Below, one piece after another: positions 57,693-60,216 of a stretch of 64,000 nucleotides of DNA. Source of the stretch: Paraspadella gotoi (taxonomy: Eukaryota > Animalia > Chaetognatha). The position numbers and the translations under genes were made by a program. The stretch is taken from the NCBI GenBank assembly GCA_051294375.1, contig CM119263.1, forward strand, positions 10,036,432 through 10,100,431, read 5' to 3'. Every line of letters starts with the position of its first letter. The stretch's first letter is position 1. The notes under the pieces are model-generated. The model was given only the letters and a program-made list of their open reading frames with translations. It did no database searches and was not told the DNA's origin.

Positions 57693-60216
57693 CATTTATG
57701 AGAAAATTGTGGCGATGTGTTCGCACCGCCTCTCGTCCACCATCCTTCCGCCAAATCCATTGGCTCAGAGGGGGAACACACCATCCCAGGCGTAGTGTTC
57801 CATCCACAGTCCTAATGACTTCCCTCTGCGTTAGCAAAGCGAGACCGTCCTAGGGTAACCGCGCCAGTGACTGGAGGCGTCACTGAGGGTCGGAAGCCCC
57901 CAAGGCCAACGGTGAGATGACCCATTCCGGTGGGCATCACGGGCAACCCGGCTGTTGCCATAAAATGTCATTTATTTTCACTCTCCTTATTTATCAAGTT
58001 CCCGGTCGGCCTTCCTTCTTCCGTCACTCGTCGCTCTCGGTCCCGCTCTCTGGATAAACGCGAATCACGCGCCAAGTCCGACATTTACTCCGACCGACCG
58101 ACCGACAACCGACCATTCGCGGCCGACAATCATCACAAATGCGGCGCCGCCCGACATTCGCACCCTCAGCCCGAAGAACGGCACGGCTTCGGCCCCACCG
58201 ACAAGTGTCGACATCACCATAACAACCACCACCACCACCATCGCGACGCAGGTTCAGACATAGGGATGAACCATTCGAGACCCACTAAGCAGAAACACCA
58301 CTACCATTACCCGGTGAGGAATACGATGGCGGCTTCGTTGATTAGCGGCCAACTTCGTTAGATACATAACTCCATATAATCAATTACTAATACCTTTCTT
58401 TCTCCTAGTTCCCCGCCAACGCTTCGGTTCCGATACGCGCAGCCGTAGAGTCGGCGGCGAGCGGCGCTGTTGACGCCGTTGGGGCGCAGATATCTCGGTC
58501 TCGGTCGCAGTCTGATGCTCGGTTGGCGAGAATTATTCCTCCCGACGTGGATGGGACCAGGTGGGGGATCTATTTCAGACAAGAATCGTGCCAAATTCGC
58601 TCATATTTATTTGTACTGCTTGGAGTTTCCAATGTTGCCGACACTTTCCTTCCTCCGTTTTAACCCTAGCAACGTTCAACTCTATGCGACGCTTGGTCGT
58701 GAGCAGCACCGCAATCGACGCCACCATCACCACCACTCGCATCACCATCACCACAACCACCCCGATTCGAGCGACGACAACGCGAGTCCTGCTGCGGCGA
58801 CCCGGGCACCCCGGCCGGCCTCGTGTCATCACGACGCCGGGGCCCTGGATATGGCCGACTATGCGGTACCGCCACGCCCACGTAGCGTCATCGGAACGGC
58901 GGATCCGGCGACAGACGCTCCGGTCGAAGCGGAGGCTAAAAAACAAATATGTGGCAGGTGGGAAAGAAATAGTGTCATTTAATTACGTATTCATTCAGTC
59001 AATTAACGTTGGTCATAAAAATTACCTCATTATCACTTTCTTTCATTTTTCCCACAGATCCGCCCACGACTCTTTCTCCCTCTCCCAATCCTCTCCCTTC
59101 ACCCACAGCCGATCCCCCGGCTCCCGTCCCCCTGCGCCCATCCGCACCGTCAGCCTCAAGCAGAATTGGACCGGCGCCGGGGAGACGGGCAAGACCGGTA
59201 ATCCATCTCGTTCGGAGCTTCCTGAGGCCATCGTCGACCCTCCGGCGCCCTCGGCTCAGGCGGCTTCCTCCTGCAGCGACGCCGAGTCACTCAGCGGCGC
59301 CTCAACCTCCTCGCCGACGACCACTTCCGGATTCGGAGACGTTGGTGGCGAAGGCGAAGGTGAGTCCTCGGAAAACAAGTCACTCCCAAAATTTGAATCT
59401 AGGGAGATGAAAAATTTCAGTTTCATCGACATGAGCAAAAAAAAAGAGAAATAAATATGAAACAATGATTCCCATTGAAAAAAAAGGAATGATTTCGGAG
59501 AAAAAGAAAGATAATAAAAACCAGATAAAACGAAAACATGCGTTGGTCGAGAATAAAAACGAGATTGACAAAAATATATATTATATTATATTATATATAT
59601 ATATTATATATATATATATATATTAAATTATATTGCCACAATATAAGGATTGAAACAAAGATCAATTTTTTACCTTTAGGCGTCCAGCTTCGGAAAAACA
59701 TCTCTCGGCCCCCGTCGACTCGATCTAAAACGGAGGCGTCCTCGAAGGCCTTCGTCCAAAATTCCAAGCTGATTGAGACGCGGCAGAGGCAATCGGTCGA
59801 GGCAGAAGTAAAAGGTCGCTGCAAGGACGCGGGCTTGGGTCGGTGTTGTATTTTAATTTTTAATAGCAGTGATTTTTGTTTAAGCAGAGAGGCTTGTTTG
59901 AATCCTTGATTCCTTAAATTCTTTTTTCATTTCACCAGGTCTCCACTGGAATCCTTCCTTCACTGATGGCGGCGTCGGCGGCATCTACTGCTTGATCTCC
60001 CGTCCGCCGGCGAGCGACGAGCGAGCAGACGCCATTCAGCAGCTGGCGTCGTCACCGCCGCGTATCCATCGCCACCACGGAAACATTGCCACTGGGGAGG
60101 CCGCGCGGGACGAGGCGCAATCTCCGTCTGTCAAGGAACTGATGAGCCGGTTTGAGCGAGGCCGTCGGAAGGCTGATGCCGAGGCCGAGGCAGATGGAGG
60201 GAGTCTTGGCCGATGA
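19182..60216 (+). CDS. ARHGAP32: Rho GTPase-activating protein of the ARHGAP32/33 (RICS/TCGAP, insect CdGAPr) family: PX, SH3, RhoGAP, long disordered C-terminus; start codon not fixed
   Basis: Spliced translation gives family motifs RFPKLEECAHFHY, WIIKRTYEQF..LHLCIYDRRFS, INCGPILNWLELDNRGN, ERVFGCDLGE, DGVYRLSG, KMYFRELPNPLLTYQLY, NLAIVWAPNLLRSK, RPKSLAVSTPTRLLSLEEAR, GWRSLF, LRSVKSAESL; ends SVKELMSRFE...GR*. Symbol marks the family, not one-to-one orthology. Confidence 0.92.
19545..21422 (+). CDS. RhoGAP gene exons encoding the PX region (19545-19619, 20883/20886-20953, 21027-21183, 21251-21422)
   Basis: GT-AG boundaries with consistent phases; PX motifs as above. Confidence 0.88.
19791..20404 (+). 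mobile_element. Non-autonomous DNA element Y (related to X); second copy 30134-30730, partial 43905-44130
   Basis: High similarity between copies; 8-bp TSDs with one mismatch (tccaacag/cccaacag; ggttacag/agttacag); subterminal TAGCCG/CGGCTA. Confidence 0.8.
20488..20741 (-). mobile_element. Solo LTR family F2 (diverged)
   Basis: Reverse complement of 57708-57962; flanks atgt/atct. Confidence 0.8.
21497..22823 (+). CDS. RhoGAP gene exons encoding SH3 and linker (21497-21607, 21683-21829, 22379-22611, 22691-22823)
   Basis: AAAHVIKSYAPQAPDELRLEVGDIVSVIDMPPAEDTTWWRGKKGFGVGFFPSEHV. Confidence 0.92.
22128..22360 (-). mobile_element. Solo LTR-like element family F3 with tRNA-Gly-like segment and twister-like core (22166-22242)
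   Basis: Sense starts TGTGGCAA; P5 TGCGAGT/ACTAGCA, T1 CGGG/TCCG, T2 AC/GT, P3 CTGTAG/CTACAG, palindromic GACGTT. No clean TSD. Confidence 0.65.
22931..23100 (+). mobile_element. Helentron-associated (HINE/DINE-1-like) element 5' end
   Basis: T-run, then ATCGAGCCT..ccggcgaagccgg..AGGCTCGAT subterminal inverted repeat and a (CGT)n tract. Confidence 0.65.
23930..24220. repeat. Minisatellite, ~21-22 bp unit (atcatcgcatcaatcatttggtt); related array at 56100-56250
   Basis: About 13 imperfect tandem units. Confidence 0.85.
24250..25066. mobile_element. TTAA-flanked MITE (Kolobok-like); deleted derivative 25294-25423; partial copy 33250-34150
   Basis: TIR gagaaaggtcattca/tgaatgaccctttttc with TTAA on both sides. 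Confidence 0.75.
25106..34458 (+). CDS. RhoGAP domain exons (25106-25259, 25467-25630, 29228-29379, 29451-29527, 29756-29817, 34359-34458)
   Basis: Arginine-finger motif GVYRLSG intact; last listed exon has an apparent +1 indel near 34369. Confidence 0.88.
25689..25895 (-). mobile_element. Solo LTR family F1 (internal deletion of P4)
   Basis: Aligns end to end with 39824-40057; flanks ttaa/ataa. Confidence 0.85.
28999..29215 (-). mobile_element. Family F6 element, diverged
   Basis: Homologous to 17888-18131; flanks actt/tctt. Confidence 0.7.
29620..29713. repeat. (CTTT)n microsatellite; another at 49553-49622. (CT/AG)n tracts at 23855, 36655, 52232, 57624
   Basis: Direct reading. Confidence 0.95.
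31076..31360 (-). mobile_element. LTR (31360-31111) followed by a 32-nt tRNA-Leu-complementary PBS (31107-31076)
   Basis: Minus strand has CCAAT-like boxes, TATAAATA, AATAAA and ends ...CCTTCA, then TGGTGGCAGCGGTAGGATTTGAAGCCACGCCC. Confidence 0.75.
32068..32677. mobile_element. hAT-like MITE Z (TIR TAAGGCGTAGT, 8-bp TSD TTAGGCAA)
   Basis: TSD 32060-32067/32678-32685. Confidence 0.88.
33331..33935. mobile_element. hAT-like MITE Z (8-bp TSD ATCACCAG); partial copies 39183-39605 and 40418-40892
   Basis: TSD 33323-33330/33936-33943; nested in the TTAA-MITE remnant. Confidence 0.88.
34885..35200 (+). mobile_element. DINE-1/HINE-like element with GTCC microsatellite; related copies 46430-47142 (-), 48900-49150 (+), 49700-50082 (-)
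   Basis: ttttagtcggatctgcttatcagca terminus and (GTCC/GTCT)n core shared among copies. Confidence 0.6.
36281..36985 (+). mobile_element. Penelope-like 3' region/pseudo-LTR with a core-deleted hammerhead (36896-36936)
   Basis: Matches 11425-11630; ggcgCTGA-aggctt..aagccGAAAtatgTAcgtc followed by AATAAA. Confidence 0.7.
37719..37762 (-). ncRNA. Minimal type I hammerhead ribozyme in a PLE pseudo-LTR (37681-38040)
   Basis: aacg-CTGATGA-a-ggcttgt aaaa acaagtc-GAAA-catg-TC-tgtt; stem I 4 bp, stem II 7 bp, palindromic stem III ACATGT. Confidence 0.85.
39875..39950 (-). ncRNA. Twister ribozyme-like motif (type P5) in the F1 LTR
   Basis: P5 AGCAGT/ACTGCT, GA, T1, GGCGCT, TAA-CCC-GC, P3 CTGTAACA/TGTTACAG, P4 CCTGA/TCAGG. 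Family consensus loop TCCG-AAG-C; this copy reads ATG. Confidence 0.7.
39953..40024 (-). other. 72-nt tRNA-Gly(CCC)-like segment inside the LTR (Pol III promoter candidate, not a functional tRNA)
   Basis: Acceptor stem GCGGCCA/TGGCCGC, A-box-like TGGTGCCGGAGG, TTCGCCTCCCA, B-box-like GGTTCTAGCC. Confidence 0.75.
41557..42197 (-). mobile_element. Complete TRIM family F1: LTRs 42197-41979 and 41790-41557, PBS 41977-41965, PPT 41804-41791
   Basis: 4-bp TSD ATAT (41553-41556/42198-42201); non-coding 188-bp interior. Confidence 0.92.
42221..43141 (-). pseudogene. Decayed intronless ORF (~300 codons) of unknown family nested antisense in the RhoGAP intron
   Basis: Protein-like segments joined by at least three frameshifts and one stop. 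Confidence 0.45.
43306..43516 (-). mobile_element. Solo LTR family F2 (truncated) with twister-like core 43357-43436
   Basis: Reverse complement of 57740-57962; P5 TGTTGGC/GCCAACA. Confidence 0.8.
44235..44274 (-). ncRNA. Minimal type I hammerhead ribozyme in a PLE pseudo-LTR remnant (44190-44430)
   Basis: gcg-CTGATGA-a-ggctc gtactgt gagcc-GAAA-catg-TC-tgc. Confidence 0.85.
47153..47343 (-). mobile_element. Solo LTR family F5 with twister-like core 47206-47265
   Basis: 4-bp TSD TGAA; termini TGTGGCG...GACATA; P5 GCTGGT/ACCAGC, P2 ACAC/GTGT, GA, T1 TGG/CCA; no P3; loop 4 mutated. Confidence 0.75.
47653..50819 (+). CDS. RhoGAP gene post-GAP exons (47653-47864, 48101-48153, 50141-50335, 50431-50499, 50655-50819)
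   Basis: Phase-compatible chain carrying RPKSLA, LLSLEEAR, FHTII, GWRSLF, LRSVKS motifs. Confidence 0.75.
49340..49545. repeat. ~18-bp tandem array (aaattatgccagttgac); related-looking array 46185-46395
   Basis: About 10 imperfect units. Confidence 0.75.
54099..54300 (+). mobile_element. Solo LTR family F2 with internal deletions
   Basis: 4-bp TSD AACT; TGTGGCG...TTGCCATA. Confidence 0.88.
54560..54618. repeat. 12-bp tandem (atactgtatagt) x5
   Basis: Direct reading; explains the VYCI repeat in ORF 54426. Confidence 0.9.
57708..57962 (+). mobile_element. Solo LTR family F2 (most intact, 255 bp)
   Basis: 4-bp TSD AAAT; TGTGGCGA...TTGCCATA; A-box TGGCTCAGAGGG at 57761; B-box-like GTTCCATCC. 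Confidence 0.9.
57829..57911 (+). ncRNA. Twister ribozyme-like motif (type P5); predicted cleavage U57856^A57857
   Basis: P5 CGTT(A/G)GC/GCCAACG; P2 CGC/GCG; GA; T1 CCG/CGG; palindromic CCTAGG; TAA; T2 GC/GC; P3 CAGTGAC/GTCACTG; P4 GGG/CCC with loop TCGG-AAG-C. Confidence 0.8.

Follow-up and report, generated by a model that had tools for sequence, protein, structure and literature searches.

The locus and the predicted ribozyme

The DNA analysed here is a 64,000-nucleotide stretch, referred to below as the window, of contig CM119263.1 from the chaetognath Paraspadella gotoi (assembly GCA_051294375.1, positions 10,036,432 to 10,100,431). Positions 57845-57858 hold T1', the linker and UAA of a predicted type-P5 twister ribozyme. 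The ribozyme sits in a long terminal repeat (LTR) of a short LTR retroelement that codes for no protein, and a short linker, palindromic in most copies, takes the place of its P1 hairpin. Copies of such twisters in the window belong to six families (F1 to F6); the parts of the focal copy, a member of F2, are listed below, the position of the cut being placed by homology to twister loop L1.

57621..57998, + strand, predicted GT-AG host intron of 378 nt, phase 0, with flanking frames open and in phase
57708..57962, + strand, F2 solo LTR of 255 bp with an exact 4-bp target-site duplication (TSD), AAAT; holds the focal twister
57761..57805, + strand, tRNA-like boxes, A at 57761-71 and a degenerate B at 57796-805, upstream of the twister
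57829..57911, + strand, complete type-P5 twister fold; P5 is 57829-35/57905-11
57839-42/57859-62, + strand, P2, its first pair a C-A mismatch; GA at 57843-44
57845..57847, + strand, pseudoknot strand T1', CCG, pairing with CGG in L4
57848..57855, + strand, F2 linker TCCTAGGG in place of the P1 hairpin; all 8 nt are self-complementary, the end pairs being U-G
57856..57858, + strand, UAA, with the predicted cut after 57856
57863-64, + strand, T2, followed by P3 (57865-71/57879-85), P4 (57887-89/57898-900) and L4 (57890-97)

The order of parts, P5'-P2'-GA-T1'-P1-UAA-P2-T2-(P3)-P4/L4-P5, and the L4 form UNNNAAGY are those of the type-P5 twister (RF02684). Support for the fold comes from T1 and T2, which covary among families (T1 as CCG/CGG, CGG/CCG and TGG/CCA, T2 as GC/GC and AC/GT), and P3, P4 and P5, each family-specific in sequence, add further weight; P4 is 3-5 bp long, P5 6-9 bp, and P2 2-4 bp with mismatches. 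The conserved residues of L1 and L4 (U-AA; the general-base G then A; U..AAG in L4) are all present in the intact copies of F1, F2 and F6, and these are the firm families, since F3 and F4 carry C in place of the general-base G and F5, whose L4 has decayed, lacks the T2 partner; F3, F4 and F5 are each represented by one decayed copy. P1 does not take the form of an intramolecular hairpin: the linker of 6-8 nt allows at most 1-2 bp within one strand, whereas P1 of type-P5 twisters is a hairpin of 12-30 nt, and weak P2 helices and sub-threshold scores set these copies apart as well. The linker marks a variant of the type-P5 twister, P1 being reported dispensable.

When the window was scanned with a descriptor that left the linker unscored, 13 matches exceeded the best of six shuffles, nine of them family copies and four AT-rich false matches; no additional twister family emerged, and the F4 core scored within the shuffle null. 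A search of the window against Rfam returned no match at the gathering score. Below it, Twister-P5 (RF02684) reached 25.6-26.3 bits on three F6 copies, against a cut-off of 37.6, with no match to F1 or F2 even at sub-threshold level. Site-specific self-cleavage by these elements is a prediction from their sequence.

The short linker in six families

The linker could be located in 16 copies (four of F2, five of F1, four of F6 and one each of F3, F4 and F5) by self-BLAST, motif searches and the descriptor scan. Beyond the focal copy they are as follows.

54099..54300, + strand, F2 solo LTR, TSD AACT; linker 54227-34 intact, 3' arm of P3, P4 and L4 deleted
43410..43417, - strand, F2 linker in an intact core; a single substitution, not within the central 4 nt
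20595..20602, - strand, F2 linker in solo LTR 20488-20741; L4 decayed
41557..42197, - strand, F1 two-LTR element of 641 bp, TSD ATAT; 3' LTR linker at 41660-65
42067-72, - strand, F1 linker in the 5' LTR of that element; palindrome broken, P3 deleted
39643..40057, - strand, F1 element with linker at 39927-32; 5' LTR, primer site, internal part and polypurine tract, with truncation at the 3' LTR
25765..25770, - strand, F1 linker in solo LTR 25689-25895; P4/L4 deleted
7522..7527, - strand, F1 linker in LTR 7434-7652
18035..18040, + strand, F6 linker AGGCCT in element 17894-18131; core intact, without P3
12527..12532, - strand, F6 linker; core intact
15503..15508, - strand, F6 linker with a G-U wobble
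29075..29080, - strand, F6-related linker, in a core whose 5' half has decayed
22219..22224, - strand, F3 linker GACGTT; general-base position occupied by C
63421..63426, - strand, F4 linker ACCGGG; general-base position occupied by C, core score within the null
47239..47246, - strand, F5 linker TGTTTGCA in solo LTR 47153-47343, TSD TTCA; no palindromic centre, T2 partner missing

In all six families the linker lies between a 3-nt T1' and UAA (TCCTAGGG in F2, GGCGCT in F1, AGGCCT in F6, GACGTT in F3, ACCGGG in F4 and TGTTTGCA in F5), which bears out the account in an earlier, sequence-only reading of this DNA. That reading had described a palindrome whose sequence changes with the family, and the central 4-mer is indeed palindromic in five of the six families and different in each of the five. 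It had also spoken of a self-complementary hexamer at 57845-57858; the self-complementarity is there, but the linker at that site is 8 nt long. The 6-nt linkers (F1, F3, F4, F6) are restricted to 1 bp and a 4-nt loop in one strand, whereas the 8-nt linker of F2 could form 2 bp and a tetraloop, the kind of hairpin that this reading allowed for F5.

Each of the five central 4-mers, GCGC, ACGT, CCGG, GGCC and CTAG, differs from its nearest counterpart by a single compensatory double change. Of the 16 copies, 13 have a strictly palindromic central 4-mer, the exceptions being F1 42067-72, F6 15503-08, with its G-U wobble, and F5. The chance of a palindromic centre in at least five of six families is about 5e-6 if the families are taken as independent and 7e-5 when one is conditioned upon. 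The innermost pair, the sole pair that needs a partner strand (the second layer could close a 2-nt loop), gives on its own p = 0.005, 0.016 or 0.16, according to how relatedness is counted. The outer pairs of the linkers (G-U, A-U, A-G, U-G and U-A) resemble the first P1 pair of the control twisters described below, and the self-duplex energies of the F1, F2 and F6 linkers fall among the best 0.5-1.2% of random oligomers. A protein site at the DNA level was ruled out as the reason for the palindrome, whose sequence varies by family while its position in the RNA fold is constant.

The F3 and F4 copies (- strand, in the region of 22227-22228 and 63430-63431) share, besides the C at the general base, a UAA-P2-T2-P3 start in common with F1, and to judge from these features F3 and F4 possibly form a lineage with reduced catalysis that still keeps the palindrome. 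Two further AGGCCTTAA motifs, at 15607-15612 (-) and 16866-16871 (+), follow GATCCC without T1' or L4; one of them lies 100 nt from an F6 copy.

Control twisters

The control set comprised 91 distinct type-P5 twisters parsed from 214 viral and prokaryotic loci, with T1 fixed as CCC and a linker of at most 30 nt. Their P1 segments measure 12-30 nt in 90 of the 91 (median 21). Among the 67 segments of even length, a palindromic central 4-mer occurs in two and a complementary innermost pair in 20, and the first P1 pair in the 91 is G-U in 17, A-G in 10 and A-U in six. The sole control case with a 6-nt segment (phage loci L083, L111 and L267) proved to be a tandem of type-P1 twisters, and a 5-nt parse in L121 was a mis-parse of a 21-nt hairpin. 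The core pattern of F1, F3 and F4, sought in viral (six loci) and metagenome (23 loci) contigs, gave chance matches only, none with L4. At L267:1440-1560 (IMGVR_UViG_3300029310_000007), and also in L271, two type-P1-like twisters stand in direct tandem 50 nt apart on a gut-type viral contig.

A short palindrome that covaries between families and is unlike the P1 of ordinary type-P5 twisters makes pairing between copies through this palindrome likely in our judgement. Without any partner strand, the palindrome would be what remains of a hairpin that has shortened, or else a stem of 2 bp closed by a 2-nt loop. Deletion of a hairpin loop does leave a palindrome behind, F2 and F5 are able to form 2 bp with a tetraloop, and the evidence from the innermost pair is weak when distinct states are counted; yet two of the four compensatory steps hit the innermost pair, which is unable to close in one strand, and a palindromic centre is rare in control hairpins (the 2/67 above), so that we regard this explanation as improbable, and the least probable of those considered.

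The carrier element

The twister-bearing LTRs are 190-255 bp long. With element ends chosen from terminal motifs, 11 elements could be scored for target duplications: five are exact over 4 bp, four match at three of four positions, one has none and one is truncated. The F1 element at 41557-42197 is non-coding and consists of two LTRs, a tRNA-Trp-like primer site, an internal part of about 190 nt and a polypurine tract; its primer site agrees at 13 of 14 nt with the tRNA-Trp primer site published for Helenus (PMC10886601). By their sequence anatomy the elements look like Helenus-type miniature retrotransposons with terminal repeats (TRIMs).

The tRNA-like boxes at 57761..57805 are a possible RNA polymerase III (Pol III) promoter, to judge by their sequence; such A and B boxes are good in F1 and F4, the B box is degenerate in F2, and both are weak or absent in F3, F5 and F6. 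ARAGORN and Rfam found no tRNA in the LTRs. A lack of T-runs was considered as a sign of Pol III read-through and set aside, as 25% of shuffles of the F1 element are also free of TTTT and four of 11 elements contain it.

In contigs of four sequencing runs the depth of F2 and F1 is about four orders of magnitude above that of single-copy flank; in one run (X2) F2 reaches about 1.6 million against 170-230 for the flank, figures that denote depth and not copy number. F2 is a very high-copy family, and the internal sequence of F1 is high-copy too, at about one-third to one-seventh of the LTR depth. Within the F2 core (57834-57871) no alternative letter reached 4% in any of the four runs, while other LTR positions vary; the invariance of the linker is not significant by itself, the linker being too short. 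For F1, no linker variant occurred among the best 40 of 82 variant rows. A few contigs, near single-copy depth, fuse an LTR end directly to an LTR start (41557/41789, back by 233) and are either tandem LTRs or the junction of an integrated circle.

Probable pairing between copies and its consequences

In a local comparison, the swapped duplex was favoured over two monomer loops by 5.5 (F5) to 13.4 (F2) kcal/mol, which overstates the case. When whole folds were compared with the native pairs enforced, the gain of the swap over two monomers was 8.0 kcal/mol in both F6 copies, with values of 3.8 and 1.1 (43417 copy) for F2. Unconstrained cofolding of F6 led to the exact swapped dimer, with linker pairs at p = 0.99, and the F6 monomer misfolded. 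In all six copies modelled, the native monomer secondary structure costs 7-17 kcal/mol relative to the free ensemble, partly because the linker pairs with the arms of P4; as T1 and T2 lie outside the model, this cost is a mere hint of self-inhibition.

Our best single model, to which we would give even odds, is that cutting would be favoured, probably without a strict requirement, in a strand-swapped dimer. Pol III would read from the tRNA-like boxes across both LTRs, and the 5' half of one twister (P5', P2', GA, T1') would join the 3' half of the other (UAA, P2, T2, P3, P4, P5). The two halves would be assembled across a shared helix of 6-8 bp and both sites would be cut. Circularisation of the unit-length RNA might follow, with tRNA-Trp as the primer, in a cycle like that proposed for plant retrozymes, and a circle with one twister would cut poorly alone and hence survive.

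In a stronger reading, animal LTR retroelements with tRNA-like promoters would use a natural domain-swapped twister whose P1 is completed by a second copy; cutting would be confined to transcripts with two LTRs or to two paired genomes, and the single-ribozyme circle would be protected. We put the probability of this reading at roughly 0.35. A number of observations weigh against our dimer model. On the side of the linker, the centre of F5 (TTTG) is not palindromic, compensatory change was not seen within any one family among the copies and variant rows listed, and the case from the innermost pair shrinks to p = 0.16 on a count restricted to distinct states. In F3 and F4, each with a single copy, C replaces the general-base G, and two-LTR copies are demonstrated for F1 only, not for F2-F6. 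On the side of the models, which omit the pseudoknots T1 and T2, the constrained gain of the swap is just 1.1 kcal/mol in F1, as in the 43417 copy of F2, and 0.2 in F3, and unconstrained folding pairs the linker at p 0.00-0.03 in F2, 0.04-0.05 in F1 and 0.00 in the decayed natural two-LTR element. Two twisters exchanging P1 strands, as the sequence-only reading proposed, survives as likely pairing and as our best model, the exchange being clear in unconstrained folding for F6 alone. Its word 'obligate' finds no support: twisters that lack P1 cleave almost as fast as wild type (PMC5408937), and P1 imperfections caused no loss of cleavage among more than 2,000 natural candidates in a large assay (PMC11662667), although P1-less cleavage is called inefficient elsewhere (PMC8501958).

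Dimerisation strict enough that monomers and solo LTRs would not cut at all seems unlikely to us. The cost of the native monomer and its diverted linker would agree with it, as would P2 helices of just 2-3 bp in F1, F2, F3, F4 and F6 and the intact sense copy within the predicted 378-nt intron. The folding cost derives from a model without T1 and T2, and the antisense orientation of most insertions, described below, tells against strict silence. In geometrical terms, 6-8 nt are able to bridge the width of one helix. The near wild-type rate of P1-less twisters (PMC5408937) also speaks against it.

The palindrome could also have a role separate from catalysis, in which a monomeric, tethered mini-twister would carry a loop-loop dimerisation signal that packages two RNAs into a helper Gypsy particle. 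Retroviruses and Ty elements have palindromic dimer signals, a precedent for such a role. In its favour are also the dispensability of P1 (PMC5408937, PMC11662667) and the fact that F3 and F4 retain different palindromes in spite of a C at the general base, a change that cut cleavage to about 0.37 in an assay (PMC11662667). Against these points, the centre of the palindrome coincides exactly with the P1 axis in each of the five families, and its outer pair is like the first of P1, F6 folds into the full swap, and a 4-nt loop on 1 bp would make a poor kissing platform. We consider this possibility doubtful, a shade more so than the strictly obligate dimer.

Solo LTRs in host introns

The sequence-only reading had also expected solo LTRs in host introns to stay silent. 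The focal F2 LTR, in sense orientation and with an intact core, fills 255 of the 378 nt of its predicted intron, which fits low activity of the monomer if the intron prediction is right. Between 21.6 and 59.4 kb, a span that may hold more than one gene, eight of ten independent insertions are antisense to the + strand gene or genes (p about 0.055, calculated by hand), a bias that counts weakly against silent solo LTRs. One of the two sense insertions in that span (54099-54300) has lost L4; its 5' half remains, and under the swap model this half could serve to complete the focal copy's core within the same pre-mRNA. Silence of solo LTRs is not implied even if the dimer model is right, because a pair of sense copies within one pre-mRNA could act as partners for each other; a better selective reason, by analogy with the double hammerheads, would be to cut the multimer while keeping a circular RNA with one ribozyme from being cut again. 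At 21647-29455 (+) lie host-gene exons encoding SH3 and RhoGAP domains, with three twister LTR copies antisense within.

Other features of the window

An open frame at 11026-11451 (+), without a Pfam match, has what we take to be a resemblance to the end of a Penelope-type GIY-YIG endonuclease, and repeats at 10853-11655 and 36281-36642 are associated with it. AT-rich repeats with long terminal inverted repeats, like those of miniature inverted-repeat transposable elements, occur in several copies (30133-33935 and 39183-40901), and a trypsin-family exon fragment lies at 63824-64000 (+).

Relation to known systems

A precedent, and one that stands as the sequence-only reading gave it (PMC6765202, PMC7761336, PMC4209133), is the minimal type-I hammerhead of Penelope-like elements, in which the closing helix at the cut site is likewise reduced to a palindrome, the ribozyme lies in retroelement terminal repeats and a double-ribozyme fold is predicted (Cervera and de la Peña 2014, PMC4209133; Lünse et al. 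2017, cited via a review). In the double form the multimer is cut and monomeric circles are protected (PMC4209133). The hammerhead belongs to another ribozyme class, and its dimer is needed because stem III is needed (PMC4209133), whereas P1 of the twister is dispensable; moreover, those hammerheads sit in pseudo-LTRs and the present twisters in true LTRs with a primer site and a polypurine tract. Three minimal type-I hammerheads with the palindromic stem III ACATGT, of the Penelope-type dimer form and missed by Rfam, are found in the window itself (7772-7810, 37720-37758 and 44238-44272, all - strand).

As for the carrier, Helenus and TRIMp3 (Kojima 2024, PMC10886601) share with the present elements a short non-coding LTR structure, a 4-bp TSD, a tRNA-Trp primer site, a polypurine tract and many solo LTRs, and F1 is within their size limit of about 1.3 kb; the tRNA-like A and B boxes of their LTRs have good counterparts in F1 and F4. 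They differ in having a T-run after the tRNA-like part of the LTR and no twister in those parts of the supplement inspected by eye, while here a twister follows the boxes, themselves degenerate or absent in F3, F5 and F6; no ribozyme is named in Helenus in the available text of that paper, which mentions ribozymes in one reference title only. Plant retrozymes (Cervera et al. 2016, PMC4918200) are likewise non-autonomous LTR elements with a self-cleaving ribozyme in each LTR, a primer site, a polypurine tract and a 4-bp TSD, and a circular RNA intermediate has been proposed for them, but they carry a type-III hammerhead and a tRNA-Met primer and occur in plants; metazoan retrozymes are without LTRs (PMC7761336, PMC6765202). 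In Perere-3, T-variant twisters (Liu et al. 2021, PMC8501958) offer another degenerate-P1 twister on an animal retroelement, unlike the present ones in being type P1, on a non-LTR element and with the 5' strand of P1 supplied by the insertion site, and neither palindrome nor dimer is mentioned in the available text. A review (PMC5408937) mentions dimers of twisters as a crystal artefact only, and no additional twister permutations were found in PMC10085705. Motif searches of sequence data for Naiad elements (PMC8557442) gave no twister context among the places listed. Our literature search, which covered few subscription papers, turned up neither a dimeric twister in nature nor a palindromic P1, and it brought to light no twister within TRIMs or Gypsy-type LTRs.

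Dimer-dependent cutting is documented for hammerheads, and a partner-dependent twister, if true, would be a case of convergence in a second ribozyme class. It would point to a general solution for cutting multimers while sparing the circular monomer, would amount to a small RNA switch that senses copy number, and would bring Helenus-type TRIMs and retrozymes together within a single element; these natural elements would also test how far the statement that P1 is dispensable reaches. Whatever the outcome for the dimer, P. gotoi has animal LTR TRIMs that bear a predicted ribozyme, were missed by Rfam and are present in very high copy.

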